Shown: positions 30,459 through 50,729 of the stretch, piece by piece
How the letters are laid out: each line of letters begins with the position of its first letter
Numbering within the stretch: the stretch's first letter is position 1
Origin: an uncultured Nitrososphaerales archaeon
GTDB taxonomy: Archaea > Thermoproteota > Nitrososphaeria > Nitrososphaerales > Nitrososphaeraceae
Direction of reading: 5' to 3'
DNA: 64,000 bases
Assembly: GCA_963713605.1 (NCBI GenBank)
Contig: CAVQMO010000005.1
Span: 96,001 to 160,000 of the forward strand
Notes under the pieces: generated by a model
Told to the model about the DNA's origin: nothing
The model's input: only the letters and a program-made list of their open reading frames with translations
The model's database searches: none
Made by a program: the position numbers and the translations under genes

Positions 30459-30723
30459 ATGGTAGTAGATCCTTTGAAGAAAGATGAAAGAGTAATTTAT
30501 CTATGACGTTACAGATGTAATACCATCCCCTGAGTATGCTTATCATTTCAAAAACTTTCTTGATCACTTTAAAGGGATAACTCGAGAATCACCAGTAGAA
30601 AAAGATGCTAGAGTTATTGAGGCAATGATTATTCAGTGGATAAAATTTCTATCCGATTCCAGAAAACGAAAGCATGGCACCATTCATAATGAAGTTGCTG
30701 CTGTATTACACTTCCTTGACTAG
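30459..30723 (+). pseudogene. tyrosine-integrase N-terminal (core-binding) stub
   Basis: ...SPEYAYHFKNFLDHF...DARVIEAMIIQWIKFLSDSRKRKHGTIHNEVAAVLHFLD* resembles the integrase core-binding (SAM-like) domain; catalytic domain absent. Confidence 0.55.
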
Positions 30724-30825
30724 CACATTTTAAAGAAATGCTTGAGTATAGGATGAATATGTAGCAATAAATCCTAAGTTCAAACTCATCACTGCACTTA
30801 GGACTGCAGTAATGGAGATGGGACT
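30720..30825 (+). mobile_element. terminase-large-subunit-like 3' fragment, copy A
   Basis: LAHFKEMLEY / VAINPKFKLITALRTAV / NGDGT, homologous to copies B and D. Confidence 0.6.
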
Positions 30826-31027
30826 AACTACTGTTAAGTACAACAAGACTGGATGATGGTACCGTTGTTGAGAGCTACAGAAAGGGAGGTACACACGATT
30901 CAGTGAGATGGCACTTCAATTTTCACAGGAGTCATTACTGCAAATGGAAGTTAGAATTATGAGGCGATGATCATCCAGTGATTAAATATTTATCTAAATC
31001 CAGGAATCTAAAACATCGTACTTCTAC

Positions 31028-31414
31028 CTATTTTGAGATTAAGTGTCTGATTTCTTTAATCAACTCTTCATTTCCAATAGGTTTGCGAATGAACAGGTTT
31101 TTATCTAATGCATTATATTCTTTCTCTCGAAACTCCTTATAATATAATTCACTTGCAGTAAGAAAACAAACATTAGCCTTACTATCTATCTTTTGTATTT
31201 CCTTGTGTAATTCAAAGCCGTCCATATCTGGCATTTTGATATCAAGAACAATCAAGTCGTAATGATCTGGTTTGAAGTTTGAAAGTGCCTTTCTGGGGTC
31301 ATTAAATGCTTCAACTTCGAATCCATGGTATTCTAAAGACATACTAAAAAACAAAGTAAGGTCAGATTCGTCATCTACTACCATGATTCTTTTTCCTTTT
31401 ACTTTTTCATCCAT
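31028..31414 (-). CDS. stand-alone response regulator receiver (REC)
   Basis: IMVVDDE, YDLIVLDIKMPDMDGFEL, CFLTA, FIRKP; likely ATG at 31414, just after the kinase stop. Confidence 0.92.
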   Translation of the reverse strand: MDEKVKGKRIMVVDDESDLTLFFSMSLEYHGFEVEAFNDPRKALSNFKPDHYDLIVLDIKMPDMDGFELHKEIQKIDSKANVCFLTASELYYKEFREKEYNALDKNLFIRKPIGNEELIKEIRHLISK

Positions 31415-31424
31415 TAGCCATGGC

Positions 31425-33596
31425 TCATTCCTTTTTTTCTTCTTCTTCTTCTTCTTCAACTCCATCTCTTATTTCTAAAGGTAGGGTGAACCCAAATATT
31501 GTACCATGTCCCTCCATTACATTATTTTCGGCCCAAATCTTGCCCCCATGGGATTGAATTATATTCTTGGAAATAAAAAGACCTAAGCCTGTTCCCTTTT
31601 GCGATCTCGTAACAAACTTTGAAAATAGTCTTGGTAAGATTTCGGGGTTGATTCCTATACCTGTATCTTTTACAGTAATAATAACCTCTTTACTATTATT
31701 ATCAGCAACTATATTAAGAGAGATATAACCTTCTTTTGTAAATTGGATAGAGTTACTTAAGAGATTAAAAATAACTTGGATTATCCTTTCCTTGTCTGCT
31801 TTTACAACGATGGGATTGTTATTAGGGTTGTCATCATAAATTAATTCAACTTTATTATTGGTAATGTGTTTAATTCTATCTTTGTAGTCCTCAATAATAG
31901 CGGGTATCAAATCACGAATGTCAAATCGCTCCTTCTCTAGTATTAAAGTCTGACCTTCAATCCTTGTTGCATCTAAAATATTGGCAGAAAGTCTTTGCAA
32001 TCTAATAGCGTTTCTGCTTATCACTTCTATTACCTGATCCGTCTTTTCTGGATAGTATTTCAATAGACCACTCATACCAAGGATAGCTTGTATCGGTGTT
32101 TTTAACTCATGAGCTGCAATACTGATAAACTCTTTTTGCATTCTATCTGCTTTCTTTAATTCTTCAACCAGCATGCGTTCATTCCAAAGTAATTCGAAGA
32201 CTGACTCGAAAGAGTCAACGGTCGCTCTTCTATTAGAGTATACCACTAGACCAATTGCATCTGAGAATTTATCAGCGTTTGGTTTCTTGAGCTCTGCTCT
32301 AAGAAACTTTTCACGGTCAATTATGTACATGCCGTAGGGAGAGCTGTTCCCATCTAGTATTTTGATATCTGGTGCGTTCTCCATTATTTTTCTCTGAATT
32401 CCTAAATTATCATCAGACAATGGACAGATAATCTTTACATTCGCTCCATTCTGTGATGCCCTCACAAGATAATCAATCATACCTAGTCTATCGATCCTCA
32501 CCATCGCTTTATCGTTAGGCAGGAAGATTAGGGCTTCTTTGCTTGTAGATTTTGTCATATCAACAAGGATCTGACTTGCTTTTTCGTTGTCAGTGATTAC
32601 CTCATAAAATTCTGCTTCGGTTCCTTCTTCAATCTCTCGTATTCTGTCTACTGCATCAATTCCACTCTCCCATAATCGTTGAAAAACGGAAGAAAAGTGC
32701 TTTATATATTGAGATTCGTTGCTTAATAGAAGGCTTTGAACAACTTTTCCATTCTCCATCTTCTCTATAGTAACGGCTATTTTCTTATCTGAAACACCAA
32801 AGCTCATTGGAGGCAGATTTCTAACATGCTTAATCCTTATACCATGATCTAGATATAGCTTGACCAGCTCTAGATTTTCGTTATCTATATTGGTAATGTA
32901 TCTAAGACCTTTGTGATCTCCTCTCTTTTGTTTATCTAATAACTTTTTCTTAATGTCAAAGAAGTGTTTGTGACTATATTGCATCCCACCTGAGGTTAGA
33001 CAAGTATCAAGTTCATTTGAGCTAGCGGTAAGAGAATAAATCTCTCTTATAATCTCGTCTGAATTATCTATTATAACGGTTTCATAACGTATAATTCCTT
33101 CTTCAATCTCTCGTATTCGATGCTCTGCGGGGATCGTTTTACTCCATAAGGTTTCAAAAACGTACTTTTGATGTTCAATTAATTCCTTGACATTGCTATA
33201 GATGATCTGTGCTGCTGACTCTCCAGCTTCATGGAAGGTAGCAGGAGCAATGTATCCTGTTTCACTGATGTAAAAGTTTCCCTTAATTCCATCTAAATGT
33301 CGAAGCTCGTCAACCATCGTCATGATCTGTTTGCAATAAGAGATGTTATCTTTGGTAATCTCAGTAACATATCTCAGTTTAACACCCCTCTTTTTAGCAG
33401 CAAGAAAAGCTTCCTTTAATAATAAAATGTCGATTGCTAATGAAGGTCGAGTGTAGTCAACACAGGCATCGATTCTACTATCAGATTGGTGAAAGAAGTG
33501 TAATATAGCATTCATTACAACGTCAACTCCATGAAAAACCTCAGTAGCCTCCCTAATTATTTTTCTATCACTTTGATGAGAACCCGACAGTGTCAA
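31425..33596 (-). CDS. cytoplasmic sensor histidine kinase with three repeated N-terminal TrmB/PLD-like domains
   Basis: Repeats of R.ITxI..xN...F..LW...; H-box FISIAAHELKTPIQAI, NLLSNS, DTGIGI, GTGLGLF; no TM segment. Confidence 0.92.
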   Translation of the reverse strand: MTLSGSHQSDRKIIREATEVFHGVDVVMNAILHFFHQSDSRIDACVDYTRPSLAIDILLLKEAFLAAKKRGVKLRYVTEITKDNISYCKQIMTMVDELRHLDGIKGNFYISETGYIAPATFHEAGESAAQIIYSNVKELIEHQKYVFETLWSKTIPAEHRIREIEEGIIRYETVIIDNSDEIIREIYSLTASSNELDTCLTSGGMQYSHKHFFDIKKKLLDKQKRGDHKGLRYITNIDNENLELVKLYLDHGIRIKHVRNLPPMSFGVSDKKIAVTIEKMENGKVVQSLLLSNESQYIKHFSSVFQRLWESGIDAVDRIREIEEGTEAEFYEVITDNEKASQILVDMTKSTSKEALIFLPNDKAMVRIDRLGMIDYLVRASQNGANVKIICPLSDDNLGIQRKIMENAPDIKILDGNSSPYGMYIIDREKFLRAELKKPNADKFSDAIGLVVYSNRRATVDSFESVFELLWNERMLVEELKKADRMQKEFISIAAHELKTPIQAILGMSGLLKYYPEKTDQVIEVISRNAIRLQRLSANILDATRIEGQTLILEKERFDIRDLIPAIIEDYKDRIKHITNNKVELIYDDNPNNNPIVVKADKERIIQVIFNLLSNSIQFTKEGYISLNIVADNNSKEVIITVKDTGIGINPEILPRLFSKFVTRSQKGTGLGLFISKNIIQSHGGKIWAENNVMEGHGTIFGFTLPLEIRDGVEEEEEEEKKE

Positions 33597-33756
33597 CCTA
33601 AGTACTATGTAGAATTGGCTATATAAGGTGCTTTATGTACAAATGTCTCCAATTGTAATATAAAAATATAATATTGCGTAGAAAACAGACCTTTTGTATC
33701 AGAATTTGCTACAAATGGCCATGATATACGGAGAAGTAAATGTTGGCGACGATGAA

Positions 33757-33988
33757 TTGTTCGTAGTTCCTGTACATTTCAGCAGAGCGCAATATTATGT
33801 TAGCACACCGCAAGCAGTTGCTAGAGTATAACAATGGATGCATTGCAATTAATCCGGTCAAAGATGGCAAATTATTCACTGCCCTGCTCACTTCCGTGGA
33901 AAATGGCGAAGGTGCACTAGACAAGGAAGCAACAAGCGATGCAGACGTCCTCGATTCCCTTCGTATGTCGTTGCAGTTCTGGCACTGA
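33757..33988 (+). mobile_element. terminase-large-subunit-like 3' fragment, copy B
   Basis: LFVVPVHFS / MLAHRKQLLEYNNGCIAINP...KLFTALLTSVENGEGALDKEATSDADVLDSLRMSLQFWH*. Confidence 0.65.
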
Positions 33989-34219
33989 ACCTTATGCTAT
34001 GACGCGAAGCAGTAGTAAGGCTGGCAATATTAATATTCTTTAATGTTAATCAATGGCCAATCGACCGACATGATAGGGTTGCTTGATAGGAAACGAATCC
34101 CGGCATCGTAGCAGAGGCAATACATAATATCTTAAAAATATCCGAAATCAACAATGAGGATCCATCGAAGCTTTAGAATGAGGCAACTAGAGCCTGACTC
34201 CAGTTTTATGTTACAGAGG

Positions 34220-34255
34220 CACGTATTCAGGTTGTCCATGCAGTTCTGGCACTAG
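34220..34255 (+). repeat. terminase-like 3' fragment, copy C
   Basis: cac gta ttc agg ttg tcc atg cag ttc tgg cac tag = HVFRLSMQFWH*. Confidence 0.6.
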
Positions 34256-34332
34256 GTTTGTGTCGAGCCCAACTCACAGATAAGAGACGATAGTAGCCAG
34301 AACCGAAAATACTACTTTTGTCCCGAGTCTTG

Positions 34333-34899
34333 TCAATCCTGAGGGAATGCCTCATCAATCAATTTATTCACAGGCTCTCCTGAAGGTAAGGGAGCATTTC
34401 TGTCAAGCTCGTATTTGAATATGTCAGGAAAATTTATGTCCAAAATCACATTTCTACCAACCGCAATTATATGGGACTTTGGTATATCAAATCTCGAATT
34501 CGAATATCCGAACACAACTATCTTGTCATTTGTTTCTTTCATAACATGCCCCACATCGTCTTCATTATTAGCCCTGACTCCTTTATTGAACAATGACATT
34601 GGATACTTTCCTTCATAAGTTCCAAGATCTACCACTTTATCGTCATCTGGCCACGGGTCTTTCCTGCTAGTGGGTAAGGGTTCCTTTCGGCTAACGGTAT
34701 ATTTTTTGATTATATCCGCAAATGGGAGTCCGATAAGAACGTTTCCGCCCACCTGCTGTATTTCTTTGATCGGGATGTCGTATCTTTCTTGTTTTCCACC
34801 AAAAACTACTACTTTATCAGGGGTTTCTCTAACTACATGCCCTATGTGAGGAGCGTCTAATGCCTTCACACCCTTATTGAAATATTTGCCCGATGTCAA
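34333..34899 (-). CDS. protein with two tandem PRC-barrel-like repeats
   Basis: Internal duplication NKGV.A.....GHV..ET.DK.VVFG....R.DIP...I..VG.NV. Confidence 0.75.
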   Translation of the reverse strand: MTSGKYFNKGVKALDAPHIGHVVRETPDKVVVFGGKQERYDIPIKEIQQVGGNVLIGLPFADIIKKYTVSRKEPLPTSRKDPWPDDDKVVDLGTYEGKYPMSLFNKGVRANNEDDVGHVMKETNDKIVVFGYSNSRFDIPKSHIIAVGRNVILDINFPDIFKYELDRNAPLPSGEPVNKLIDEAFPQD

Positions 34900-35027
34900 A
34901 CCTGGTAATATTCATCAACCTCGGGTTTTAAATAGTTGCCTAGGCATTCGAATGTTTCCGAAGATGTATTATCCTAGGTTTAAGAATATTCGATGCTAGA
35001 GGCAAATTCATTGTAACAATTCTTATT

Positions 35028-35564
35028 TTGTTACATTTTGGGTCTTCAAGCAAGAATTGTTTTAAGTATGAACCAACTAATAATACGTTGTACTTGAGCT
35101 TAGAAGGGATAGATTCTTCCACACAAGCTGAAGATAACCGTTTGTTTGATGATGACGCTCGAAGTGTTGGGGTGACCAAACCAGACCATTCACATAAAAT
35201 TCTGGTGGTAGATGATGAGCAAGACATAGTCTTCACGTTGAAGACTATCTTAACTGAGGCTGGGTTTTCTGTAGACGCCTTCACCAATCCTTCGGTTGCA
35301 TTCGAAATGTTTAGACCTGAAAAGTATGAGTTAATCATCTTGGACATCAGAATGCCAGGTCTCAATGGATTTGAATTGTATATGAAATTGTTGGAACAGG
35401 ATACTTCTATCAAAGTATTGTTCCTGACAGCCGTTAACGAATTCTCAATGTATGCTAAATTCAAGAGTAGTGTATCTCCAATGTCAGGCAAAAGATATTA
35501 TTTGCAAAAACCCGTAGACTTTACGAAGCTATTGCAACGCGTTGACGACATGTTAAGTCTTTGA
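35028..35564 (+). CDS. stand-alone response regulator receiver (REC)
   Basis: ILVVDDEQD, YELIILDIRMPGLNGFEL, LFLTA, YLQKPV; start uncertain. Confidence 0.9.
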   Translation: MLHFGSSSKNCFKYEPTNNTLYLSLEGIDSSTQAEDNRLFDDDARSVGVTKPDHSHKILVVDDEQDIVFTLKTILTEAGFSVDAFTNPSVAFEMFRPEKYELIILDIRMPGLNGFELYMKLLEQDTSIKVLFLTAVNEFSMYAKFKSSVSPMSGKRYYLQKPVDFTKLLQRVDDMLSL

Positions 35565-35713
35565 CGAATTACATTTTGCGTTGCCTGGTAGGTTTTAGTT
35601 GAAAATAATCTATTTCATGGGCGTCTATCTGCGCAAAGTCAAGAGACAGGGTGTTGGTATTGGTATTGGTATTGGTGGAAAGGTTCATCTACGACTGTGT
35701 ATATCACTAAACC

Positions 35714-36079
35714 ATGAGAGTGACTGCCACGGTCCAGCGGCAAGAAATTGATAAAGCCGACAACCACTCGGTAACTGAAAATTACCTAACGCTAAAGGAT
35801 ATTTCACCAAAATGGTTCGAGAGGCTATTCGGTAAAGAAATGAGCCTTCCCTTCCCTTTATCTCCAGTTTGGTTTAAATGGTATTTTGATTTGGATTCAC
35901 CTACTAAATGTATAGTAGGAGAAGCACATGGTTATTCCTCTTCGTACGAACAGACGTGTAAAGAATGCGATCGATTGGGGTGGAGTTTTGGTAAATCCTT
36001 TTTTCTCCGATCACGCGCAAGACTAGAGGACGACGTCAGCGAATTCATCCATCATTGGAACACAAAGCATTTAAGATGA
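35714..36079 (+). CDS. hypothetical protein
   Basis: 121-aa ORF with CIVGEAHG...C..C...HWN..H potential metal ligands. Confidence 0.7.
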   Translation: MRVTATVQRQEIDKADNHSVTENYLTLKDISPKWFERLFGKEMSLPFPLSPVWFKWYFDLDSPTKCIVGEAHGYSSSYEQTCKECDRLGWSFGKSFFLRSRARLEDDVSEFIHHWNTKHLR

Positions 36080-36283
36080 TTTCCTTCCGTATGAACTTGG
36101 GGAACTATCTATTCTAGAATTTCTCAGTATTGCCGTTAAACGGGTTTTATTTTAATGGAATGGACATGGCGAGATATTCAGGGAGAGGTCGTTATCAACC
36201 AGTAACATGTCAGCTAAAGTTACTGGCATTGTATTTCATATATGGAGGGGGTCTCTAATATATGCAAATGATTAGCACAGTTG

Positions 36284-36733
36284 TTAAGAGATTGCACCGA
36301 TCCCATGTCCTATGTACCCATTGCTTGTTGCTTCTATTGAATAGCCCTGGGAAATTAATGTCTCAATACAGCCTTCTTGCTGCTGCTTTTTCTCCAAGGA
36401 TAAAGAAATCGCTGCGCTTCCCTCTTGGTCTGTGGTATTTGCTATAGTGCCAGCTAAGGGTGTATTGAACTCGACCAGTGCATCAGGGATAGATCTCATT
36501 GTCATATTATCCCACACCGAAACTAATACAAAGTATGAGCAATTATTTAACTGATTTTTTGCCTGAATGTTATGCTCAATTTTCAATCCTTGCTCAGCGT
36601 GTGCTAAGGGAAATAGATCTGCATTTGAATGGAAATTAGCGAATATTATAGCAAGAATACAGGTGCTCACTATGACGGTAATCTCGACAAGAATCTTTTC
36701 GATATGAAGTGCTCCATTGGGTTTAAGATACAT
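36284..36733 (-). CDS. secreted hypothetical protein (carboxypeptidase-regulatory/Ig-like)
   Basis: Signal-like N-terminus; IPDALV...TTDQEG.A...YSIEATSNGY pattern. Confidence 0.55.
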   Translation of the reverse strand: MYLKPNGALHIEKILVEITVIVSTCILAIIFANFHSNADLFPLAHAEQGLKIEHNIQAKNQLNNCSYFVLVSVWDNMTMRSIPDALVEFNTPLAGTIANTTDQEGSAAISLSLEKKQQQEGCIETLISQGYSIEATSNGYIGHGIGAIS

Positions 36734-37127
36734 TTAACTCAATACTAGTCGGAATCTTTATAAAAACTGACGTGAGTGATAATTAGAAGAAAAGAAGTTA
36801 ATCCTAAATCAATAGTATTCTTCCTACCTAGATCTAAATGGTGATTCCAAACATTGGTAAGGATGATAGTTCATAATCTAGTGCGAATTTCGGGTCACAC
36901 CGGATCATTCCATAACAAACCCTAAATCGATGAAACGACATCATATCTCCAATGGAAGGAAGAAACAAACAATTGTTCCATGACTTCTTTAAGAATAAAA
37001 ACACAGATAAGGACATCATGTCCTCCGTCTTAAGCTAATTAATTTTGCCTATCCTCAAGTTATACTACGGTGCATGCTTGGAAAGGGTAAATGGTTATCA
37101 ATATGCATATTATACATATATGTTGTC

Positions 37128-37275
37128 ATGTTTGCAAAGGCTCGCTGCCAGATTGTGCAACGATCAGGTAAGGTTTGCATTGCGACATCTGAGGACCAAG
37201 CATCCAGAAGTTTTAAGCGACAAGGACGTAGTTAGGCTTAATATGCCGCAGATCATGAAAAGATTCTTCGTTTAA
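37128..37275 (+). CDS. C2H2-type zinc-finger microprotein (one extra base near 37149)
   Basis: MFAKARC/RLCNDQVRFALRHLRTKHPEVLSDKDVVRLNMPQIMKRFFV*. Confidence 0.6.
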
Positions 37276-37950
37276 CGTATTTACCGATGAATGTTTCTCG
37301 CAATTTGCTACAGCCATCTACACTCGTGTTTATGAATGCTTCGTTTGGCCGGATCCACACGTGACAGCGTCGTGTCTACTATCAGGATTGGTTCTTGAAT
37401 TTAACGATGTGAAATCTAAGATGTCTCTGCCAGTAGTATTTGCTAAATTCAAATCATACTACCTGAGTAATTAGATACTGTCAAATTTAATCTAGTCATT
37501 AAAAACTCAACGGAAATGATACTACACATCGGTCTAAGAATCAAACTCCTCTTAGCTTTCGAAGGTTGATTAATTAGACTTGTGCCATGCCCGACACTGG
37601 AGATAGTCTCCTATCCTGTGGCGGAGCTGGTCAGGCTCATTCGGGGATGACATAGGTACAGTGTGTACGCAGCAAAAAGTAATGATTTTCCTAATAATAC
37701 TATCACATTATCAGAAAGATTTCTTTATAATAATTATTATGTAGACTCGACTGACCTTAAATCGTCCGTCGATTGAATGAATTCATTCGATTCAAGGCCC
37801 GATGAGTAACGGATTAAACCTAATATCAGACTGAAATGTCATTGCAATGACATCCTAAAAGCATAAATATATTCCATAGAAGAATTCTGACATTAAAGTA
37901 ATAGCCAGATCTCACAATCTCAGATAAACAAGAATAATTAACTGGTTCTC

Positions 37951-38623
37951 ATGACGAGACTGAAGGGTATTTGTTCGTTTCAAATTATCTTGTTCATAGT
38001 ATCATTATCTTTAGTTGCGATATTGATTTCATTCACTACCGTCGAGGAAGTAAGTGCGAGCAGTAGACTGGATTTGAATAGGAGATCTATTGACATTGAT
38101 ATTGATATTTGTATAAGGTGTGATTCGCCTGTTCCTGGCCCACCTGGTCCTCAAGGTCCTGCTGGCGAAGAGGGACCAACAGGACCCCAAGGTGAGACAG
38201 GCGCTACAGGACCCGCGGGAACAACGGGACCGCAGGGACCCCAGGGTGCGACAGGTGCGGACGAGGCCGCTACAGGATCACGCAGGACCGCAAGGACCCC
38301 AGGGTGAGATAGGTGCTACTGGACCAGCAGGACCTGATAAAATTTTAGAAAAGAGGCAGGCCGTATCTCAATCTCCTCCTGGCAGTATCCCTATTGTCCA
38401 ACCAGGAGGAACATTTACAGCCAATGCTGAATGCAATTCTGATGAGATAGTTACGGGTGGTGGATATTCTATCTCCTCCGGAGGACTCATAAGTGTTGCG
38501 TTCCAAGGAGAAACGGTCACGGATTCTATCCCTGCGTGGACTGTAACGGGTACAAATATAGGTGATACTCTATTCGTGTATCAAGCATTTGCAGAATGCG
38601 TAAAACTAGTCGACGCACCCTGA
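37951..38623 (+). CDS. secreted collagen-like (Gly-X-Y) protein (indels near 38255-38285)
   Basis: Signal peptide, about 20 GXY triplets ([19 protein letters not shown]...), C-terminal [14 protein letters not shown]...AFAEC domain. Confidence 0.85.
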
Positions 38624-38662
38624 CTCGACCATCCTCTCTCCTTTTCTTTAAATTTTCTAGTC

Positions 38663-38782
38663 TTAATGCCAGAACATTAGACTCAATCTGAAAGCATCAA
38701 AGCATTCATCATGTGAAGTTGTTTCCTTATCCAATGATCCCGTTCCATCTTCAACCTCTGTTCTAAGCGCAGTGATTAGCTT
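38663..38782 (-). mobile_element. terminase-large-subunit-like 3' fragment, copy D
   Basis: KLITALRTEVEDGTGSLDKETTSHDECFDAFRLSLMFWH*. Confidence 0.7.
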
Positions 38783-38794
38783 CGGATGCCTACA

Positions 38795-39438
38795 CTACCC
38801 AATGAGAAACGCTTGTGCTAGGATATATATTCCAAGTCCGATGAGCACAAATGGCATCACTACATGTCCTATACGGCGTATTCTCGAAGCAATCAATGGG
38901 TGATTTACAAGATAATATGCTGCTATACACCATACCGCAGTTATTAACATAAAAACTACTATTAGTGTAGTAACTTGACCTATAGAGTTATACTGTGCGA
39001 ACATAGGAGTATAGACCCCAATGTTGTCACCTCCATTTGAAAAAGTTACAGCAGCAACAGCCAGAAAAGGTAGATACTGTTTGTTCCTTCTTCTTCTATT
39101 GTTGCTCTCTTTTTGCTGCATCCATCGAAGGAGGGGCAGATGCCCTTTCTCCTTTGATTATGATCTGAACTAGTCTGCTAGTGCCTATTGCTATCGGCAC
39201 TATGCCTAGTAACCCTATGATATATGGCGGAACTATTAGTGAGATAAGCGAACCAAGTGCACTTATAGCGATAAGCAAATATTCCGATATACTGACCCAA
39301 TACTATCTGTCTAGTTGGAAAGGTCATGGAAGAAGAACAGGAAGAAGAAAAGAACATCATAAGCACAAAAATATCGTCAATATTAGTAGCAACGAAGGCT
39401 GAGATACCTATTGCTATTAGACTCATAAGGTCTGTCAA
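38795..39438 (-). CDS. cadD: cadmium resistance transporter CadD family (two frameshifts)
   Basis: AFVATNIDDIFVL, IVLGQYIG, IIGLLGIVPIAIG, VTFSNGGDNIGVYTP, PFVLIGLGIYIL. Confidence 0.88.
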
Positions 39439-39535
39439 CTCTCACTAACTCTTCTTCCTGTATTCTACAAGAGTCTTAAGTATGGCTAATGCGAGAATAA
39501 AAGTGATAACCTGAAAACATCAAACAAATCATCGT

Positions 39536-39862
39536 GTGAGGTTGCTTCTTTGTCTAAAGACCCTTCGCCATTCTCTTCTCCGTAGTATTTTTAAGCGAAA
39601 TCGGCCAGGTACAACTGAAAAATTGAATGCTGAGGAAGCCAAGGCATTGTTGAAAGAGAGAGGTATATCAGTTATGAATGTGCCTCACGGCTATATGGTA
39701 AAAGTATCCAAAAGGGAAGGCAGTCCGTCACGCCGTATCGATTTGGATGAAATGAATGCGATCCTGGCATTAGGCATGATTAGACTGCTTGCAGTTGAGG
39801 ACACTGTTGGAGACATCCTTATCGAAGTACTAAATAGATTAATGCCAGAACATCAAAGATAA
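39536..39862 (+). CDS. hypothetical protein (its 3' end overlaps terminase-like copy E on the other strand)
   Basis: 108-aa ORF; no firm domain. Confidence 0.35.
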   Translation: MRLLLCLKTLRHSLLRSIFKRNRPGTTEKLNAEEAKALLKERGISVMNVPHGYMVKVSKREGSPSRRIDLDEMNAILALGMIRLLAVEDTVGDILIEVLNRLMPEHQR

Positions 39863-39940
39863 TCTAAACACGTCCATTAGATCATCATGGCTAATTGCTT
39901 CCTTGTCTAATGAGCCTTCTCCATTACCAAACGCTGTCTG
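39839..39940 (-). mobile_element. terminase-large-subunit-like 3' fragment, copy E
   Basis: QTAFGNGEGSLDKEAISHDDLMDVFRLSLMFWH*. Confidence 0.7.
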
Positions 39941-40162
39941 ACCAAAGAGAAGACTAATAATCTAGGCTTTTGATTTGGTTCATTAAGATAGTGGATAATC
40001 AAGAAATATGCGCTGGCCTAGATAACCATTGGGGAGGCTACCGTGTTACTTGATATAGGCAGAGCCCACGACGGTCTAACCTTGCTTGGTTCTGGCATTT
40101 TACGCTCAGGATTTAGTTATCTTGAACTAGTAACAGTCGTTAGTTACGCCGGTGCGTATCTG

Positions 40163-40454
40163 TTAGGTGTAAGAACGGTTAAACTTGTGAACTGGACTAC
40201 GTCGTACAATTGTGTATGCCTTGTATTTTCTTGTCGCGTTATAGATTCCATACTTATCTTGTCTCATCCATCCGATGTCTTTAAGGAAATTAGCAATTCC
40301 AGAAATTAATTTTGTATCATTGTCAAAGTCCATGGATATCCCCTCTATAGTCTCATGCTTGTTTACTAGACGGTCTAGTACGTTTCTTGCTAACGCCAGG
40401 CCAGAAAGTTGTTTATTATCAGTAGTTCCTACAGGTTGTGTCGAGGAAATTCAT
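40163..40454 (-). CDS. small winged-helix-like hypothetical protein (start obscured by an indel; not in ORF track)
   Basis: 95-codon open frame ISSTQP...LARNVLDRLVNKHETIEGISMDFDND..LISGIANFLKDIGWMRQDKYGIYNATRK...*. Confidence 0.5.
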
Positions 40455-40554
40455 CTTACCCACCATTGTAATGATATACAGCCTACCTTTTCTCTCCTGA
40501 TATCTTATGATAGTACTCTTTCTTATAGTTGCCTGTTTGATATCATTGTTAGGA

Positions 40555-40685
40555 GGAAACGAAAGATAGGACGACCGCGAGGGCTAGACCATTGGTCGTC
40601 CTATCCTATTTGTCAATGCATTCTGTTACGACGTCAGTCAGGTGCCATTATCATGAATAAAAGGTATTCCGGAACATGGTTACCC
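40555..40685 (-). ncRNA. putative promoter+hairpin small RNA unit, copy 1
   Basis: GTAACCATGTTCCGGAA-TACC-TTTTAT promoter-like motif, then a perfect 12-bp stem GATAGGACGACC/GGTCGTCCTATC (40565-40605) and a T-rich tail on the minus strand. Confidence 0.4.
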
Positions 40686-40756
40686 GTGATTTATAATAAA
40701 AACAGACCTAATTGCGTAACAAGCAAGAATTGTTACACAATTAGGTAATTATTATT

Positions 40757-40869
40757 CAAAAGAAAGATAGGTTAGAGCGCGATTGCCGTCCTACCTGTCA
40801 ATGCACGATATCCCACTTTACATTGCGCTTTATAGTAATAAATAAAAGACATTCCGGAACTTGATTACC
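40757..40869 (-). ncRNA. putative promoter+hairpin small RNA unit, copy 2
   Basis: Diverged duplicate of copy 1: GTAATCAAGTTCCGGAA..TTTTAT...GCATTGACA.GTAGG...CCTATCTTTCTTTT. Confidence 0.35.
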
Positions 40870-41539
40870 TTTATTTCTAGAAAAGGTAGTACGACCAGGG
40901 AATTTGGTAACAAAAACTTAGCGGTACTACCCTATTCTTTATGCTTGCTTTTGGAGTAGTTCGTCCCGCCTTCAGAATATTTTCATGGGAGGCATTATCT
41001 TTGGTTTTTTTACCTCATCGTATTCTCCATCGGTCTGTATCTTCGGCAAGAATTACGCCATGGTAGGACAATATGATTTGGTAACACTTCAAAGAGTAGC
41101 CTAGGCTACTCCCCTTTATTTATATAGAAAGGCCCCCTTATTCGACGGTTTGCTACTGCGTCTGCTCTGGCTGTTGTTGCCTCTGTCGCTGCTGTTGGTA
41201 GGGAACCAGATACTTCTTGGTAAAGTCTTCGATGAGTAGCTTAGATTGTCGACTCGAGCAGTTTGTTACCATTTTATCTTGCATCTAATTATTTTCCCGT
41301 TTGTCAAGGGCATCAAATCGTCCTCGTTGGTCTATAAATAACGCTAGATATCGCTGTCCTCGCTTTGAAATTCGATACTGGTAGGGCCCTGTAAATTCAT
41401 CTGAATATTGCCAAAGCAAGAATTGTTTCTTACTAATTCATTCAGACATTGGTTAACACAAGCACGTGACCGACTTGGTAGCCTGTGAGCGATCTCTACT
41501 GGAGGTAATTCTGTGAAGAGAGTGAATTGAGTAAATTCA

Positions 41540-41866
41540 TCAGTTTTTGTAGGTGAGAGTATCGTCAAAATCTGTTGATAGGTCTCCATTTTGTAAGGCA
41601 TCATTCTTATTACTATTTTTATTTTTAACCAGTATATGACCCCATGGGGTGCTAACTCCATCATCGTTCCTATGCTTTTCACAAAAATAGACAATGAATG
41701 TGAAAGGCCGATCCATCATATCTCTAACTGTGATCTCCTTTTCATACTTCGCTTCTTGTTGACAATCGATTACATCACAAGTAATATCGAATAGCATTCG
41801 GTTTAATTTAGGACTAGAACGCGGACGAGTAGGAGGGGCGGCGGGTGAAGACATTGCTAGCCTCAA
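41540..41866 (-). CDS. hypothetical protein with zinc-finger-like motif
   Basis: CDVIDCQQEA...YFCEKH. Confidence 0.5.
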   Translation of the reverse strand: MRLAMSSPAAPPTRPRSSPKLNRMLFDITCDVIDCQQEAKYEKEITVRDMMDRPFTFIVYFCEKHRNDDGVSTPWGHILVKNKNSNKNDALQNGDLSTDFDDTLTYKN

Positions 41867-42137
41867 CCACGAAATAAGTTATTTCACAATTTGATACTGT
41901 ATCGAAGATAAATTAGTACCTGAATTTACTAGTGGAAGAATAATAAACTCATTCTGAATGCCGATCATACCATTTCCTGGGCCTTGGTGGGATTGATGGG
42001 CTTCCTACTTTCATAAATTAGCGGACAGGTTTGGTTAATCCAACCTATCTGCACGATAAAGACTCTTGTTACCCTTATTAGATTTCGACGTGAATATTCA
42101 AAGGATCAACTTATAGATTTATGGTTGCGCTTAATGA

Positions 42138-42188
42138 TTAATGCCAGAAGATTAGACTCATTCGAAATGCATCGAGCAAATCATCATG
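42138..42188 (-). repeat. terminase-like 3' fragment, copy F
   Basis: HDDLLDAFRMSLIFWH*. Confidence 0.65.
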
Positions 42189-43367
42189 ATTCGCAGCATA
42201 GATCCTGCTTCGAGAAGAGATCTATGATTTAATATATAGACTGATAGGCCAGAACTTAAACGAAATCTGTCGGTCTTATTGTCAGATTGAAAGGAACTAG
42301 TTTGATGGCCATCATTATAGTAACTGTTGCTTCTTTAGCCCTTTTACTGGTGCTACTTCCTACCCTGTGGCAAACGCAAAGTATTCAAACAGATCATATA
42401 TAATAAAAATGGATTGATAAGCAGACAACCAGTATGTATGCGATCAGAAACCTGGTTGCCTGACCTATTATTCTTTATGCTTGAAAGTGAGGTTCTTTGA
42501 GTGACTTAAAGGCCTCAACTGCCTGCGACTATATGCACAATATAATATAAAAGTAGATAGAGAAGGACAGCCTACGTGCAAGAATTTAGGAAGGGTGTAG
42601 GCGCCCTTCTCCCCTTGCGAACTGACTGCTTGGATTTAACAATTCTTGATTAACTTCGTCAAGTGACAATTTTATGCTAAGCATAGCTCAATCAATAAAA
42701 TGATTAGCAAGGCTAGGGGGAATCTCTAACCAAACCCCCATACCTAACACTCAAAATGAATACATCAGACTAGGTGTATAGATAGTTAAATAGACCTGCT
42801 TAAGGTCTTTTAATTGTAAAACTTCGAAAAATAGGATTATTGGGATATTTGATTAGTTATTGCCTTAATCATGACATGACATAGCAGTAAAAGTAAAAAA
42901 GTAAATGGAAGATTACTTTGTTATTTATTCCTCTACCTCGGTAACAGTGACCTTAAACTCGGTTAATCCCCAGTTCTTATTCATAACGAATAAACAGTGA
43001 GTCATTCCCTGGGGTTTCCTCTTTGGTATATAGGTTATACTGCGGTGCTGAGTGATCTTCAAATGGCATTTCCTAATTATGGCCTCCAAATGAACCAAAT
43101 GATAACATTAGGTTACAAATTGCCACTGGTCTTCTTCATATGTTACTTTCTGCTGTCCACCATGGAATAGGTCTTTCTTTACTTCGCGAACCAAATACTT
43201 AGGAATTCGTTTTTCCAGGACACTTGGACGTACTTGTTTTCGTTTTCATTATATAATATCATAGTGTTTCGTTTTGCGTTACCAAATTGATATATTAACT
43301 ATGTCACTGGTTGGATTTTCATTTTGAGTTGCTGATAAGGTTTATACGGTTCTATGGAGACATAAGT

Positions 43368-43491
43368 GTAACCAAATTCCGGAAAGCATTTTAATCTTTA
43401 TACCTCAATCGAACAACATACTAGCATACAGTGGATAGGGCAGGGCAATAACCTGGTCTCCATATTGCCTTGGCTTGGCTAACCCCTATCC
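43368..43491 (+). ncRNA. putative promoter+hairpin small RNA unit, copy 3
   Basis: GTAACCAAATTCCGGAA-AGCA-TTTTAATCTTTATA then nested stems GGATAGGG/CCCTATCC and GGCAATA/TATTGCC. Confidence 0.35.
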
Positions 43492-43644
43492 CGTGAATGT
43501 ATTTAGTATAGTCGACTCTATATAATCTTCAAATATTTTGTCTACCACAACTATACAAAGTTTTTTAGGACCCCTCGCTTTAGAGATAGTTTTCAATGAC
43601 GATAGGAAGACAAAAATAGATGAAAACGGCTAAGGAGGGCAGTT

Positions 43645-43782
43645 TTGCAAAGAAAAAGTGTAACGTGTACTTTTTGTGGAAATAGTGATGGGTATAACCA
43701 GGTTCGACTGGCTGGTGGTTGGGTATACCTATGTGCATGTTGTAAGAAGGAATTGGAATTAACGAATCAGGTTATCTCTTAG
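43645..43782 (+). CDS. 45-aa CxxC...CxxC zinc-ribbon microprotein
   Basis: TTG start; MQRKSVTCTFCGNSDGYNQVRLAGGWVYLCACCKKELELTNQVIS*. Confidence 0.55.
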   Translation: MQRKSVTCTFCGNSDGYNQVRLAGGWVYLCACCKKELELTNQVIS

Positions 43783-44050
43783 TTATCCAAGACCAGACAA
43801 GTGTAAGTGCAGTGGAGAATAATATCCCCCCTTTGCGGTCACGATTGCAAAGGGTATCATTGATTAGTATCTGACAAAGAACCAGTCTGACACTAAAGGC
43901 GAAGAATAAGGCGCCATTACGTAATACTATTTCTATGTTTGTAGTGAAACAATGGAAGTTACAACCGGGTGACGAATCAGAATGATCGTTCGAGGTATCT
44001 AAAGACGGAGACTTGGTATTAGTAGCGATAAAGATTAAACTAAGAAGTAA

Positions 44051-44176
44051 TTACTTTACATGTTTATGATTTAGTTTGTGCGTTACGCAGTATTTTTTAT
44101 CTGTGTTACAATCTTCACATTCTTCTGTGGCCATAAAAGTGCAGGCAAATTTACTGCACGTGTTACCCTCTGACAT
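44051..44176 (-). CDS. 41-aa AN1/B-box-like zinc-finger microprotein
   Basis: MSEGNTCSKFACTFMATEECEDCNTDKKYCVTHKLNHKHVK*; CTTTATAA box ~25 nt upstream. Confidence 0.72.
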   Translation of the reverse strand: MSEGNTCSKFACTFMATEECEDCNTDKKYCVTHKLNHKHVK

Positions 44177-44243
44177 TTACTCATTCAATCCTTTGTTGAC
44201 TTATAAAGTTAAAGTTAGAAGACGTTATATTATGATATGACAG

Positions 44244-44366
44244 TTATTGGTTCTTTCTATGCGTAGACGCATGTTCCTTAATATGGACTCCGCATAAATA
44301 TTGATTGCACTCTTGACATTGTTGAACACATACCCTTTGACAGACACTACAAATTCCTTGGGACAA
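44244..44366 (-). CDS. 40-aa B-box-like zinc-finger microprotein
   Basis: TTG start; MSQGICSVCQRVCVQQCQECNQYLCGVHIKEHASTHRKNQ*; CTTTATAAAG ~25 nt upstream. Confidence 0.72.
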   Translation of the reverse strand: MSQGICSVCQRVCVQQCQECNQYLCGVHIKEHASTHRKNQ

Positions 44367-44390
44367 TTCATTACCCAATGTGTTTGTCTA

Positions 44391-44612
<222 letters not shown>

Positions 44613-45727
44613 CTATCATAAGGCTACTCACTAGTGCAAAAATCACGGCAAACCAAATATTGTTTAAAGATAGTTTGCGGTAATCTGACAACTTTGTCAT
44701 TCACTGAATACCCCCTCTTTATAGTTTTTAATTACTTACCTATGGAAACCAATTACAGAAGTATCTATGGAAAAATCATATGTGGTTTCGTTTTACCCAA
44801 ATTTTTGATATGCCGTAAAACTAATCATTTTCCCAAAAGGGGTAGTAGGAGCACAAAATAATTGAATCAAGTCATTAAAGCCTAGGGATAATATTCACAG
44901 CGGCAGGAAAAAATGTTCTGGAGAAGATCATGTAAAAATCTTATATAAAGAGACTCAGTAATATTTCTCCAGAGTGCGAAGATGACCATCGGATGAGATG
45001 GATTTGCATTCACTGTAATAGCATAATGGACTGCACAAACTTTACGGAGTTCATAAAGCAAAGCGACAACAACAAAAACAGCAATCAAGAAGTGAAAGTA
45101 GAATATCACGCTTGGCGACTACTTGCAGACTAGAGTAATGCCCAAACTGTCGCGTCTCCCTGGACACAGCCAATTTATTGCCATGTTTATAGAGACAGAG
45201 TAGCTGTTGATTTTCTTAGAAAGCCTAAGAAGAGTACTCTAATTACAATTCCTTATGACTCTTTATGACTCTGACAGAAATGTCAAGTTTAGATGGAGGA
45301 AAAAAGCAGATTGGAATCGTGCCGCCCCGTTGGCGGTTATTGCATTACCTCTAGTACTCGCCGAAGGGTTTATGTAAAGACAGGCGGTAATTACAGTCAT
45401 CAAATATGAAGATTCTAATTCACAGGAACAAACGGTAGTAATAGATTTCCTAGTCGATGTAGGATCGGCACAACCACCCATATATACAAAATTCTTAGAG
45501 GCACAGGTAAGGAAACAGGACAAAGCCTACCCTACCTAGAAGTTCATTTCTCAGCAATTAAAAATTAAAGAGGGAAATCCAAGTCAGTCTATGAAACTGC
45601 TTGTGTCACTATCTCTCGCTCGACAGTAGTCCCTTATTATATGAATCTGCATTGGATCGTCTGAGGTCCGAGTACAAAAAAGTCTGGGAGTCTCACAAAG
45701 GAGGTCTCTGGTAATTATCCATGAAAT

Positions 45728-46133
45728 CTACGCGGAATATCCGGTGCTGATATGAAGCACGATACAGTCCCTCTTAAATCTCCAGGAGCAGTAACAGTAC
45801 ATTGTTATAATAATCCCCTGACCCTGGCAACTTTCTACCGTTACATGAAACGGTCCCGCAGGTGATTCTTTTACTTGCTCCTCCTCTTCATTAAACTTTG
45901 AAATCTGTAGGGTAGTAGGTGAGTTGGCTGTACCGGCATCCTGTGTTTGTGGGCTGGTTTTTACCACAGTTGGTACCAGTATCACAGTAAATACCATTTC
46001 CTTGTGACTGAGTAATGGTATTGGCGTATTTGGCGTTTGCATAATTTGTAATGCCGATGCCACCTGATAATAGTGGTAAACCCGAAGTTAAGACTAAAAC
46101 TACTGCAAATATCGAAATATATTTAATTTTCAC
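45728..46133 (-). pseudogene. secreted protein fragment (frameshifted/truncated)
   Basis: Signal peptide MKIKYISIFAVVLVL...ANAKY, CDTGTNCG, then TSPQTQ..GTANSPTTLQIS in another frame. Confidence 0.55.
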
Positions 46134-46290
46134 ATAATGCTATTACGGAATGTGTTTTCATGGACTCGTAGACATTTCATTCCCTATAAGAAATAAGTCG
46201 AATTTACCTTAGTTTTTTTCATATAACTATATATACCGTATTTATAAGCACTCGCCGCCCATAGTACAATATCAAGAATTGATAAATACA

Positions 46291-46449
46291 TTGAAGGACA
46301 ACGACACCAATAATGAAAACGCAAAGAAGAAATGTAGTTGGCTCGACTGTGATCTTCCGGCTACAGAAGAGTGTGCTTATTGCGGTAGAAAATATTGTAC
46401 AGAACACAGTGTTAGACACGAACTCGAACGGCATGGTAACAAAACCTAG
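46291..46449 (+). CDS. 52-aa AN1-like zinc-finger microprotein, paralog of 44051-44176
   Basis: TTG start; ...KCSWLDCDLPATEECAYCGRKYCTEHSVRHELERHGNKT*; shares CS...C...ATEEC..C...KYC..H...H. Confidence 0.72.
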   Translation: MKDNDTNNENAKKKCSWLDCDLPATEECAYCGRKYCTEHSVRHELERHGNKT

Positions 46450-46938
46450 TTAAATCTTGTAGCCGATCATTATTATTGGCAAAGGTGAGAGTGCAACGGA
46501 CAACCAACCTTTGAGTTAGGTTGGGTCTAATATTATGATTGTGTCTGGCACGTCATTTTTCCTCAGGAAATTTCTTGACAATGTTCTTTACATGTTTCTT
46601 ATGATTAGTATTCTGCCAACTCAAGTGAAAATCTCCAACATAAAGATCTTAATAACTAATGTAGTACATATCAGGTAATTCAAGGTAAGCCTCTTTTGCC
46701 TTGGATATATTGCTCTATCACGTTATTGAATACTTCAGGGTCGTAAGCATGTCTGTCATGTTGTTGTTGGGGAATCTGCTTGTACTGCTACTGCTGATGT
46801 TGTACGTCTGCTGTTGCTACCCCTTCGCCTTGAGTCTCATCTACTAGCACAACTAGTTCATGCGTAAACTATTATTTATTATCAATAAATCCTGATAATA
46901 CTATACATTATTATTAAGCACAAAATAAATCTTGACCA

Positions 46939-48944: not shown

Positions 48945-49020
48945 CTATGCCCCCCACTATAGTAACAAGGCGATGAAACTCGATTAATGGTTGTACGATT
49001 GCAAACCTACAACCATTCGA

Positions 49021-49536
49021 TTATAGTAATCCACAATCACTTAGGCTATCAAGAATCGGTCTCAATTTAAGACCAATATCCTTTTCGTGCAAAACGAATT
49101 TACTATTCAATTGAAGGGCGATGGATAGCATGTTTCTGTCTTCTCTGGAGGTGTAAATTCCGTTTCCTATTATATTATATCTATCCGTATTAGATTTCAT
49201 CCACGTCTTCCATGTATCCATTCTTTTCAAATCTTCCTCCATCCTCCCATAAGCAAAATCTAAATCTACGTGTTCATCTTCGATGTCAAGAAGACCGAGT
49301 TTCACTAGCGGAACAAGAACCTCACCTCCAGGGACCTCTTTGTGCTCCTGGTTCATGGCCTCAATGATGGTCTCCTCATCCTCCTCTGTCTCATTACTTG
49401 ATTTCCGATCGGTTACAAATCCGTAGTTGGGAAAAAAGTACCCTGCTAAATCATTGCTCCTATCATATATCTTGTAAATCGTTTCCTCATATTCGATTTT
49501 CCATTTCTTTCTGTCCTTATCTCTCTTTAGGAACAC
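49021..49536 (-). CDS. hypothetical protein
   Basis: 171-aa acidic ORF; no recognised domain. Confidence 0.7.
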   Translation of the reverse strand: MFLKRDKDRKKWKIEYEETIYKIYDRSNDLAGYFFPNYGFVTDRKSSNETEEDEETIIEAMNQEHKEVPGGEVLVPLVKLGLLDIEDEHVDLDFAYGRMEEDLKRMDTWKTWMKSNTDRYNIIGNGIYTSREDRNMLSIALQLNSKFVLHEKDIGLKLRPILDSLSDCGLL

Positions 49537-49935
49537 GATATCGAAGGTATTTGTGAGCAGGCGATTTTAATCTTGTCCACGGTGTTGTGACTCTGCTTGT
49601 CTAATGTCGCGAATAGTGAGTTCGGCCCAGAATTCAGATCTACCAAATTCCATATATTGTGGCGGATGTCCCCCACAATATAGGAATAATTAAAGCATCT
49701 ATTTGTTTCAACGAGAAGTTTTTTTAATTAGGTTAGAGGAACTATTTTAATGTGGCTGGAACTGATGTGTCCTGTCCCTGAACTTAAAATCTAGGGGCTC
49801 GGCGCTTCAAAGGGGCCTCGTGCCGTTATGGTTTTCCGTTGAATTTAATGAACAATAACAAGATGTATACCTAAAAAATATTTGCTTTCGATATGAAAGA
49901 GAAGGGATCGAGGCCGAAGCTTTAATCATATTCCG

Positions 49936-50367
49936 TCAAGGTACTGATCTAAATATATCAGCGGATATAAAGTGAATCTGAAAAAGAGACCATTCAACTA
50001 TTGTTGCTCGTGAATTCAATCTATAAAATTCATAGGAGTGTTGCTTGGCTGTTTTGAACTTTAAAAGACATTTGTCGATCCTGACCAGCACTCTTATCAG
50101 TGATGTAATTAGTGATTTAACCGAAGAATAAAGTACCGGTTTGTTTTGCATAAGTATTCCACTCAATTTTTTGGATACCCAATTGAGGGCTTCAACCTGA
50201 TTTGCAATGTTCCATAATCGACTTGGATCCATATCGGTGTGCTGAAATTCCCATCTTTTCTGAGTAATTTGATCACTAACCACGGTATAAACTCGTTGAA
50301 TTACCAATTCATTAGCTCCTGGGTAGTATTGTTGTTGTTGCTGCTACTCCACGTTTGACCTAGGCAT
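49936..50367 (-). CDS. hypothetical protein (ATG at 50367 followed by an in-frame TAG at 50344-50346, or TTG start at 50307)
   Basis: ORF track 49936-50307; upstream frame MPRSNVE*QQQQQYYPGANE. Confidence 0.45.
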
Positions 50368-50729
50368 AAATGTAGATCATGAATTCGAGAATTTAAGATA
50401 TGGAATACCAATCCAGAAGGGGGAGGGGATACTTAAGTTCCCATTTACAGCAATAATGGTCAGTATTCCTTCCTTGAGTCCAATTCTACTCCTATTGGAA
50501 TCAAAAATGTGCCAAAGTGCTATCTTCACCTGGATGCAACTCTGGCACTAGCTGGGGTTAGCAGTTCAGGAGCTCCCCAGCGATAGAATTCGGGCATAAA
50601 AATAATTGTTGACTCCTATCTAATCAATACCCCAACTTGGTCACAGCTATGTATGTGATTTATCTATACTGGCTACAATGCATATGCCCATCGATGCATT
50701 GAGAGTTAAAATATTAGATATGATAACTC

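Follow-up and report, generated by a model that had tools for sequence, protein, structure and literature searches.

Scattered 3' ends of a terminase large subunit gene accompany cargo genes in a soil Nitrososphaeraceae archaeon

The 64,000-nucleotide stretch analysed here (the window) comes from an uncultured Nitrososphaerales archaeon of the family Nitrososphaeraceae (assembly GCA_963713605.1, contig CAVQMO010000005.1, positions 96,001 to 160,000). Its accessory regions contain short fragments of a single gene, taken from at or near its 3' end, which an earlier sequence-only reading had attributed to a terminase-like parent. Below, G000 is the genome of the source contig (4.09 Mb), so that the window is G000:C5:96001-160000; other genomes, loci and contigs have G, L and C numbers. 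Using a DNA profile built from the last ~600 nt of intact parents, and a separate short tail profile for weak copies, we found seven real 3' fragments ("tails") of terL, the gene of the terminase large subunit (TerL), in the window. These were the six proposed earlier, A to F, and one further fragment at 39487-39578 on the minus strand, listed below as the additional tail.

30720..30824, + strand: copy A, a frameshifted terL fragment near the 3' end, ending before the last catalytic motif (DNA profile E 2.8e-14)
33758..33988, + strand: copy B, the longest tail of the window, ~230 nt, TerL residues ~433-494 (tblastn 67%, E 1.5e-18; DNA profile E 5.5e-42)
34221..34255, + strand: copy C, a 35-nt tail ~70 nt from the right edge of insertion hotspot 1, described below (weak: long profile E 0.26, short tail profile E 0.011)
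38663..38791, - strand: copy D, tail, residues ~453-494 (tblastn 76%, E 1e-13)
39487..39579, - strand: additional tail, residues ~466-494 (tblastn 83%, E 4e-8; DNA profile E 1.7e-18)
39839..39940, - strand: copy E, tail, residues ~462-494 (tblastn 73%, E 8e-9)
42138..42198, - strand: copy F, a 61-nt tail, residues ~476-494 (DNA profile E 1.9e-6, and 1.1e-9 in a second scan)

The coordinates, strands and translations given earlier for A to F all matched, and the DNA profiles recovered each of them. The statement that none retains the upstream gene body was true of every window tail, as judged by the profile and by coverage of the parent. A seventh copy had been proposed at 50534-50551. It was matched by neither profile and lies in intergenic DNA that is collinear with G003 and G009 and reads differently there; we regard it as a chance resemblance in inherited intergenic DNA.

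The suspected identity of the parent was confirmed by a PHROG match, a predicted fold and conserved residues. The parent protein P0001 matched the PHROG TerL family phrog_2 with an E value of 3.4e-23. The structure predicted from 96 homologues (predicted local distance difference test score 85.5) had only TerLs as its top Foldseek matches, namely T4 gp17 (E 3.5e-17), Sf6 gp2, D6E and HK97. Among the 96 homologues, K89, K90, E187 and D315 were invariant, and D186, D375, D481 and D484 were present in at least 90%. The acidic residues of Walker B and of the nuclease are among those conserved, and the last two, D481 and D484, fall within the tail. The Walker A region is without the canonical GK(S/T), a form also present in portal-bearing viruses. 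The match with Pfam Terminase_6C (E 0.02) was below the cut-off, and sequence searches of NCBIfam and the PDB returned nothing relevant, only unrelated weak matches. Intact versions in relatives are 485-515 aa long, and 3262 homologues, viral ones included, were found at E<=1e-10. Sequence and structural model together indicate that the parent is a terminase large subunit with an ATPase and an RNase H-like nuclease fold, for which ATP-driven DNA cutting and packaging is predicted.

The tails are a real feature on the scale of the genome. At E<=1, G000 contained 162 copies, 127 of them with the FWH-stop end and 35 belonging to a second type whose C-terminus is longer. The reversed genome contained none; the FWH-type profile alone gave 153 matches versus 0 at the same threshold. 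The FWH-stop 12-mer occurred 86 times in G000, compared with 6 in the control. The 3' end was present in 138 of the 162 matches and absent in 24. Coverage of TerL rose from 4-7 copies across residues 1-220 to 54 across residues 461-494. Segments 99.4-100% identical on the three contigs C2, C12 and C13 may be assembly duplicates, which would raise the tail count by a few.

The 3' bias was also assessed with two 70-aa probes of matched conservation, one from the Walker B region (middle) and one from the tail, with best non-self identities of 87% and 86%, respectively. Across 15 genomes the tail probe gave 395 matches and the middle probe 78 (76 versus 6 in G000); the tail count was above the middle count in 12 genomes, equal in 2 and below in 1. 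As the middle probe is equally conserved yet five times rarer, detection bias is excluded. The earlier impression that tail-only copies exceed fragments from other parts of the gene was therefore borne out genome-wide and genus-wide. In the whole family the tail probe matched 89 of 151 genomes and 17 of 18 genera, and the middle probe 74 of 151 genomes (the unpublished G095 is included in both counts). A clear tail excess was confined to genera g1 and g25, the tail probe being taken from g1. In other genera, where C-termini diverge, the g1 tail probe gave no clear excess among the matches listed (e.g. 10 versus 15 in G144, 9 versus 11 in G096). Two other gene families of the elements described next left remnants in G000, of which 55% is coding: TerS-like remnants reached 19 copies versus 4-5 for the adjacent start of terL, and integrase remnants showed a milder, opposite bias, with 15-19 copies of the N-terminal and 7-10 of the C-terminal part.

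Intact terL genes are accompanied by a tyrosine integrase, a replication module and a helix-turn-helix (HTH) protein just upstream, in the position of TerS, with unrelated cargo downstream. The integrases match phrog_1/216. The replication modules vary, with MCM and PolB in L012, a primase-helicase in L257 and a PriX-like domain in L032. Across 158 TerL loci, the only widely recurring genes were TerL, the TerS-like HTH family (in 69 loci, frequently as the gene immediately before terL) and integrases (in 26 and 10). The TerS-like protein has PHROG matches at the level of the HTH, with one paralogue matching a TerS family at E 3.9e-5; the Atlas search named no TerS family for it. In the same kind of search, a 238-aa protein that recurs in the elements had a score of 0.76, which is below chance level. 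The proposal of a family of packaging-gene elements with cargo placed right after terL thus has direct counterparts in intact loci.

The accompanying idea that the parents are proviruses with head genes was not upheld. In 53 viral loci, TerL was followed by adaptor and portal genes, with the portal family in 46 of the 53. A portal was found in only 5 of 79 metagenome loci (44-48% identity to P0001) and in 1 of 79 genome loci (43%). Two portal profiles matched 5 and 2 of the 151 family genomes, compared with 74 for the middle of TerL, and none of the 14 genomes of genus g1. No head genes were found among 203,557 six-frame open reading frames (ORFs) of G000, though very divergent ones could escape. 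Three IMG/VR scans returned no close relatives (at least 50% identity). Head-tail viruses or proviruses at L107, L108, L115, L117, L118 and L247, whose TerLs are 43-48% identical, are candidate helpers or donors. An element with integrase and terL, L015:7866-8849 (G013:C169), encodes a protein of 328 aa that is homologous (36% over 194 aa) to a head-module protein of virus L107, and is a possible intermediate. In L012:2249-7850 (G008:C315) two full-length terL genes of 78% identity follow one another, with a truncated TerS-like gene ahead of the second; this is an early stage of array building.

The tails form polar arrays. Neighbouring tails in G000 were co-oriented in 54 of 57 cases within 2 kb and in 75 of 86 within 5 kb. 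Extra tails beside an intact terL were downstream and co-oriented in 9/9 cases in one set and in 22/29 in another; the 53 viral loci had no extra tails. Near integrases, 40 of 68 tails point away from the integrase and lie on its strand. One array is an element at tRNA-Met (C10:850575-883402, 32.8 kb) with both attachment (att) copies, an integrase, six co-oriented + strand tails and many cargo genes. No terS and no whole terL were found in it, and it is a cargo-only derivative; its att repeats, at the 3' end of the tRNA, are the sole pair mapped. Direct fusions of integrase to tail or of TerS to tail were seen at window 30499-30824, C10:465811-466878, C10:1124157-1124903 and C4:118956-119361.

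The tails are of no preferred length and decay neutrally. Of the 138 with a 3' end, 93 were at least 50 nt long, 56 at least 100 nt, 22 at least 200 nt, 10 at least 500 nt and 3 at least 1200 nt. The lengths follow a power law with an exponent of 0.9-1.35, near 1, without a peak; an exponential was rejected (p<1e-5). Stops and frameshifts are present: an intact WH-stop was absent in 40 of 106 tails and an ATG-initiated ORF of 20 aa in 48 of 106, and only 10 of 58 longer tails were free of disallowed residues. Nothing was conserved in the DNA past the tail stop codon. Where tails have downstream DNA in common, most of their differences fall at third codon positions (57:31:16; synonymous codons 43, others 31; 9/12 pairs), which suggests that tail and cargo diverged jointly in live elements and were clipped separately.

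We favour the explanation that the tails are dead 3' ends of terL, left by capsid-less integrating elements and hitchhiking with cargo after loss of the backbone, and give it a probability of about 0.6. On this view the tails are most likely incidental products of satellite-like elements, a family that is still poorly known. As satellites, the elements would use heads supplied by head-tail viruses of Nitrososphaeria. Repeated insertion at a single site and the joining of one element to another, followed by loss of the redundant backbone, would produce stacked units of tail plus cargo. Because terL is the last backbone gene ahead of the variable cargo zone, cargo that is retained when the backbone is deleted, or when the cargo is captured, would drag along a terL piece of random length. 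Upstream DNA would be clipped at random and the cargo-linked end retained, which would yield the 1/length law: in our derivation, a kept cargo-linked end, a constant junction rate per upstream base and a steady entry of fragments give a survival of 1/length. Afterwards, the tails would likely serve as patches of homology or microhomology through which cargo units are deleted and swapped, and there is a fair chance that the tail has thereby turned into a working shuffling handle.

Several observations weigh against this explanation. Tails shorter than ~25 nt and junctions past the stop codon are invisible, so the length curve is cut off. An age-dependent form of the model predicts that shorter tails are more decayed, yet among 58 tails the correlation of length with decay was -0.18 (rho; p 0.18). 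Seven of the 29 extra tails beside an intact terL are upstream or inverted, and 11+10+7 of the 68 tails near integrases violate the orientation rule. No internal att repeats (exact 18-mers) were found inside the tRNA-Met array. The L015 element retains its viral head-module homologue. In a FastTree phylogeny of 76 of 145 TerL sequences (near-duplicates and loci with <3.5 kb downstream excluded, three misplaced non-TerL rows included), three viral TerLs with a portal fell into one group with 37 that have none (support 0.92). As portal-bearing viruses are nested among portal-less TerLs, the capsid-less elements are not cleanly one clade; with the L015 homologue, this makes exchange with viruses or repeated loss likely in the history of the elements. 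Finally, the genome tolerates junk, yet the body of terL has been purged (4-5 copies) while TerS-like genes and integrase N-termini persist. An extra cause is therefore needed, for which toxicity or a size limit are candidates.

We considered the possibility that the tail is a working recombination handle, one per cargo unit, and that units are inserted, excised and swapped through crossovers joining two tails, or a tail and the 3' end of an intact terL; this would be a cassette system based on homology and not on a dedicated site. To this end, segment pairs at least 85% identical that reach a tail in both copies were compared with a null in which tails were shifted. In 22 pairs similarity gave way to unrelated DNA across the tail, and there were 17 continuing edges; double-edge events numbered 51, versus 0.2 in the null. 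Some groups share the upstream flank and the junction and then part right at the stop codon, and others share the downstream flank only. The spacings, mostly 0.2-3 kb, indicate small units, and in L022 a second tail begins ~30 nt past the stop of an intact terL. Such flank switching fits the role of recombination patch, or anchor, suggested for the tail by the sequence-only reading. On the other hand, 160 breakpoints lie away from tails in 57.6 kb of aligned DNA, so that the enrichment at tails is just ~2-3 fold; the pairs are not independent, and masking itself generates double-edge events. Several joins are out of register and are not clean crossovers. Pairs with the same upstream DNA differ in a near-neutral manner (31:25:10 by codon position; 13 synonymous versus 30 other codons, 9/11 pairs). 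Deletion between direct repeats, moreover, accounts for loss and not for gain. This mechanism is unlikely to be the main one, though it is the best placed of the alternatives.

Another possibility is that the last ~150 nt of terL contain a loose pac-like zone at which the element's terminase cuts before packaging to the right. Transferred DNA would then start with a clipped tail, and each tail would be a packaging tag for the cargo that follows, in a form of lateral transduction. The nuclease residues are conserved, the arrays are polar, and the out-of-register joins, together with short inserts within tails, suggest DNA ends at those places. Yet the synonymous identity was 0.44-0.50 in the tail and 0.39-0.54 in the rest of the gene, with no excess in the tail, and the scale-free lengths show no peak. 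Furthermore, pac sites usually lie in or near terS (P22, SPP1, P1). We consider a cut zone improbable.

Still less probable is that the tails are retained because the adjacent cargo draws a terminator, promoter, small RNA or peptide from them. In the first 150 nt past the stop, convergent neighbours outnumber co-directional ones (21 versus 11, p 0.11), and in the window the tails do mostly face convergent cargo genes, as had been noticed. Genome-wide this pattern disappeared. For the 138 tails with an intact 3' end, the next gene within 1 kb, as called by a crude gene caller, was on the same strand in 54 cases, on the opposite strand in 55 and absent in 29. The convergent share elsewhere was 40% behind ordinary genes and 45% in local controls, and cargo genes lie on both strands. 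T5 tracts were present in 7 and 4 of 106 tails, compared with 10% and 8% in controls, and TATA-like motifs in 4 and 2 of 106. The absence of a convergence bias and of T-tract or TATA enrichment leaves the suggestion that the tail terminates cargo transcription without support. A function as peptide or RNA was rejected as well: the tails decay, with the losses of WH-stop, ORF and allowed residues given above, and Rfam gave no match in window 26000-54000.

A tail acting as att site is a shade less credible again. Here the integrase would target the 3' end of terL and supply a replacement end, in the style of helper-embedded satellites, or would act as IntI does on attC. Tyrosine integrases do accompany the elements, the 3' ends of tails are fixed at the stop, and integrase clades that target prophage late genes, terminase included, are described in the available portion of PMC10111431. 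Yet the 5' ends of the tails are spread over 25-1200 nt, no conserved DNA core or flank was found, and the mapped att sites are at a tRNA 3' end. Nor do the tails form hairpins: for 42 tails the mean z was 0.09 and 0.10 on the two strands, with 1/42 below -2 on each. The IntI profile TIGR02249 gave 19-39 bits with four of five integrases and nothing with the fifth, far below the cut-off of 265. With neither an attC-type hairpin nor a conserved DNA site nor IntI-like integrases, an integron-like mechanism for the array was rejected. Plain random decay of proviruses, with a C-terminus that is merely easier to detect, is the least probable of all: tails do carry stops and frameshifts, some are without the 3' end, and fragments of the middle occur, but it fails against a 3' bias that is genome-wide and genus-wide with an equally conserved middle five times rarer, and against polar arrays and a G000 whose six-frame ORFs yielded no head genes.

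For the capsid-less element itself there is one published precedent. NitKor-E1 of Ca. Nitrosopumilus koreensis AR1 is an integrated element with a tyrosine integrase and adjacent TerS-TerL and no other head-tail virus gene, judged a likely relic of enigmatic function in the main text of Krupovic et al. 2019 (PMC6563490), as far as it was available. Our elements resemble it in gene layout, with an integrase and a TerS-like protein next to TerL and no head genes. Unlike the single NitKor-E1, they are a large family in which the catalytic residues are intact, the replication modules are of several kinds and tail remnants number >100 per genome. The nearest TerL relatives, with 30-46% identity and the same deviant Walker A region, are those of Nitrososphaeria head-tail viruses (IMG/VR loci L041-L043 and L124-L173). 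These differ from our elements in having adaptor and portal after TerL (46/53) and no extra tails.

Phage-inducible chromosomal islands (PICIs) usually have TerS only, and capsid-forming PICIs (cf-PICIs) have a full head module. The elements described here have in common with PICIs and other phage satellites (SaPI, EcCI, cf-PICI; available portion of PMC10111431) an integrase, their own replication genes, packaging gene(s), an accessory zone and the lack of a complete virion module. TerL with a TerS-like protein, and without portal or capsid, fits neither PICIs nor cf-PICIs. In contrast to helper-embedded PICIs, there is no fixed site within a late gene (5' ends at 25-1200 nt) and no helper head module around the tails. 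In integron arrays, which are polar, small cargo units alternate with related repeats close to a tyrosine recombinase. The tail arrays resemble them in their co-oriented repeats between cargo units near such a recombinase, and differ in having no attC-like hairpin, no IntI, variable 5' ends and cargo in both orientations. With the promoter early stem-loop (PeSL) cassettes of T4-type phages (PMC2839356) they share short repeats in hyperplastic regions and cargo shuffled across by recombination; in the portion of that source at hand, however, PeSLs are functional promoter-terminator cassettes with stem-loops, whereas the tails are coding sequence in decay and have neither hairpin nor T-tract.

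Tycheposons of Prochlorococcus, according to the available part of 10.1101/2020.12.28.424599, return to a single tRNA or other site, displace older material towards the outside, leave remnants that degenerate and thereby form islands. Integrase-bearing elements that revisit a site, islands of remnants, and satellite-like and cargo-only forms within one family are thus common to both. As far as that part goes, tycheposons carry TerS or capsid protein, the PICI-like ones without cargo, whereas our elements carry TerS-like protein, TerL and cargo, and the remnant markers are partial tRNAs there and the end of terL here. No description of terL-tail arrays was found in the published literature, subscription papers and supplements (e.g. 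the element tables of PMC6563490) being outside the scope of the search; the available portions of PMC10111431, PMC11849493, 10.1101/2025.02.15.638363 and PMC7603488 describe no such arrays.

A terminase without capsid, of which a single thaumarchaeal element had been the known example, is the norm in this family of soil ammonia oxidisers (74 of 151 genomes with the middle of TerL, 7 of 151 with a portal), and counts of "proviruses" based on TerL may be inflated in these genomes. The tails provide a ready marker of every past visit of an element. DNA within 3 kb of a tail makes up 14.6% of G000 and is 44% coding, versus 57% elsewhere; duplicates 80-99% identical cover 25% of it, versus 12% elsewhere. 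Among 14 genomes of the genus, which as kin are not independent, tail count correlated with genome size (rho 0.59, p 0.03; 0.72 after correction for completeness). Sheridan et al. 2020 (PMC7603488) reported a duplication-driven genome expansion in this order; the word terminase is absent from the main text as available. The tail elements offer a testable mechanism for this expansion and may help explain large, duplicate-rich genomes. A stronger claim, which we regard as rather unlikely, is that soil Nitrososphaeraceae harbour a widespread class of virus satellites with a complete terminase and no head genes that use their own terL 3' end as a reusable recombination handle or cut zone and build integron-like arrays without an integron integrase, these arrays being a main engine of gene duplication and genome expansion.

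Comparison of the window with 13 orthologous stretches resolved it into core blocks and two insertion hotspots, which contain the following features besides the tails.

30100..34327, + strand: insertion hotspot 1, the decayed remains of an element with an integrase, flanked by the core UPF0147 gene and by a core block that begins at 34327 (13 orthologous stretches)
30499..30717 (C5:126499-126717), + strand: N-terminal remnant of a tyrosine integrase, fused straight to copy A (integrase profile positions 27-103; matches integrase starts of G003, G001 and G012)
31028..33596, - strand: hotspot 1 cargo, a response regulator and a histidine kinase (Pfam; the orthologous site in relatives is without them)
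37275..46873, - strand: insertion hotspot 2, a 9.6-kb patchwork of 100-500 nt pieces known from other loci, with four - strand tails (13 orthologous stretches)
39580..39839, + strand: a 260-nt cargo unit with a tail on either side and a small ORF at 39623-39862 (99% identical copy on C14)

Hotspot 1 is nearly empty (~130-340 nt) in G007, G008, G011 and G013. At the same site a same-orientation integrase, or remnants of one, is present in G001, G003, G010 and G012, and G001 has three + strand tail matches, one of them weak. Because the integrase N-terminus abuts copy A, the whole element backbone between them has been deleted. Copies A to C point away from this remnant, around the kinase-regulator pair, whose paralogues (85-86% identical) adjoin terL remnants at C10:366-368 kb and C10:1009-1011 kb. 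A Cys-rich ORF of ~45 aa on the minus strand at 30287-30430 is frameshifted in G000 and conserved in at least five relatives. Integrase-bearing and integrase-free sequences part at its start, and its 5' end may therefore be the integration target of hotspot 1.

Hotspot 2 is reduced to 138 nt in G011, contains a same-orientation tail in G008 and G013 and a weak tail in G001. The C14 copy of the 260-nt unit has the same end point, but the tail there is another, shorter one and is followed by other DNA. A piece of ~150 nt at 44992-45150 recurs at ~10 other loci, often right behind a tail stop, and is probably where a small cargo gene that occurs repeatedly ends. Two genes taken earlier for cargo, at 34333-34899 and the zf-UBP gene at 50730-51014, turned out to be syntenic core in relatives. 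Between 5 and 6 public DNA sequencing runs, from two studies, contain at least half of 33600-42400; two public RNA runs had just 0.05-0.06 of words in common with this segment, which is no evidence of expression. A collagen-like gene spread over two frames (37951-38623), a truncated Cad transporter (38795-39121) and a split isochorismatase-family gene (51157-51826) are either pseudogenes or products of assembly frameshifts. At the end of the window, 62628-64000 is occupied by a long coding region of low complexity with tandem repeats.

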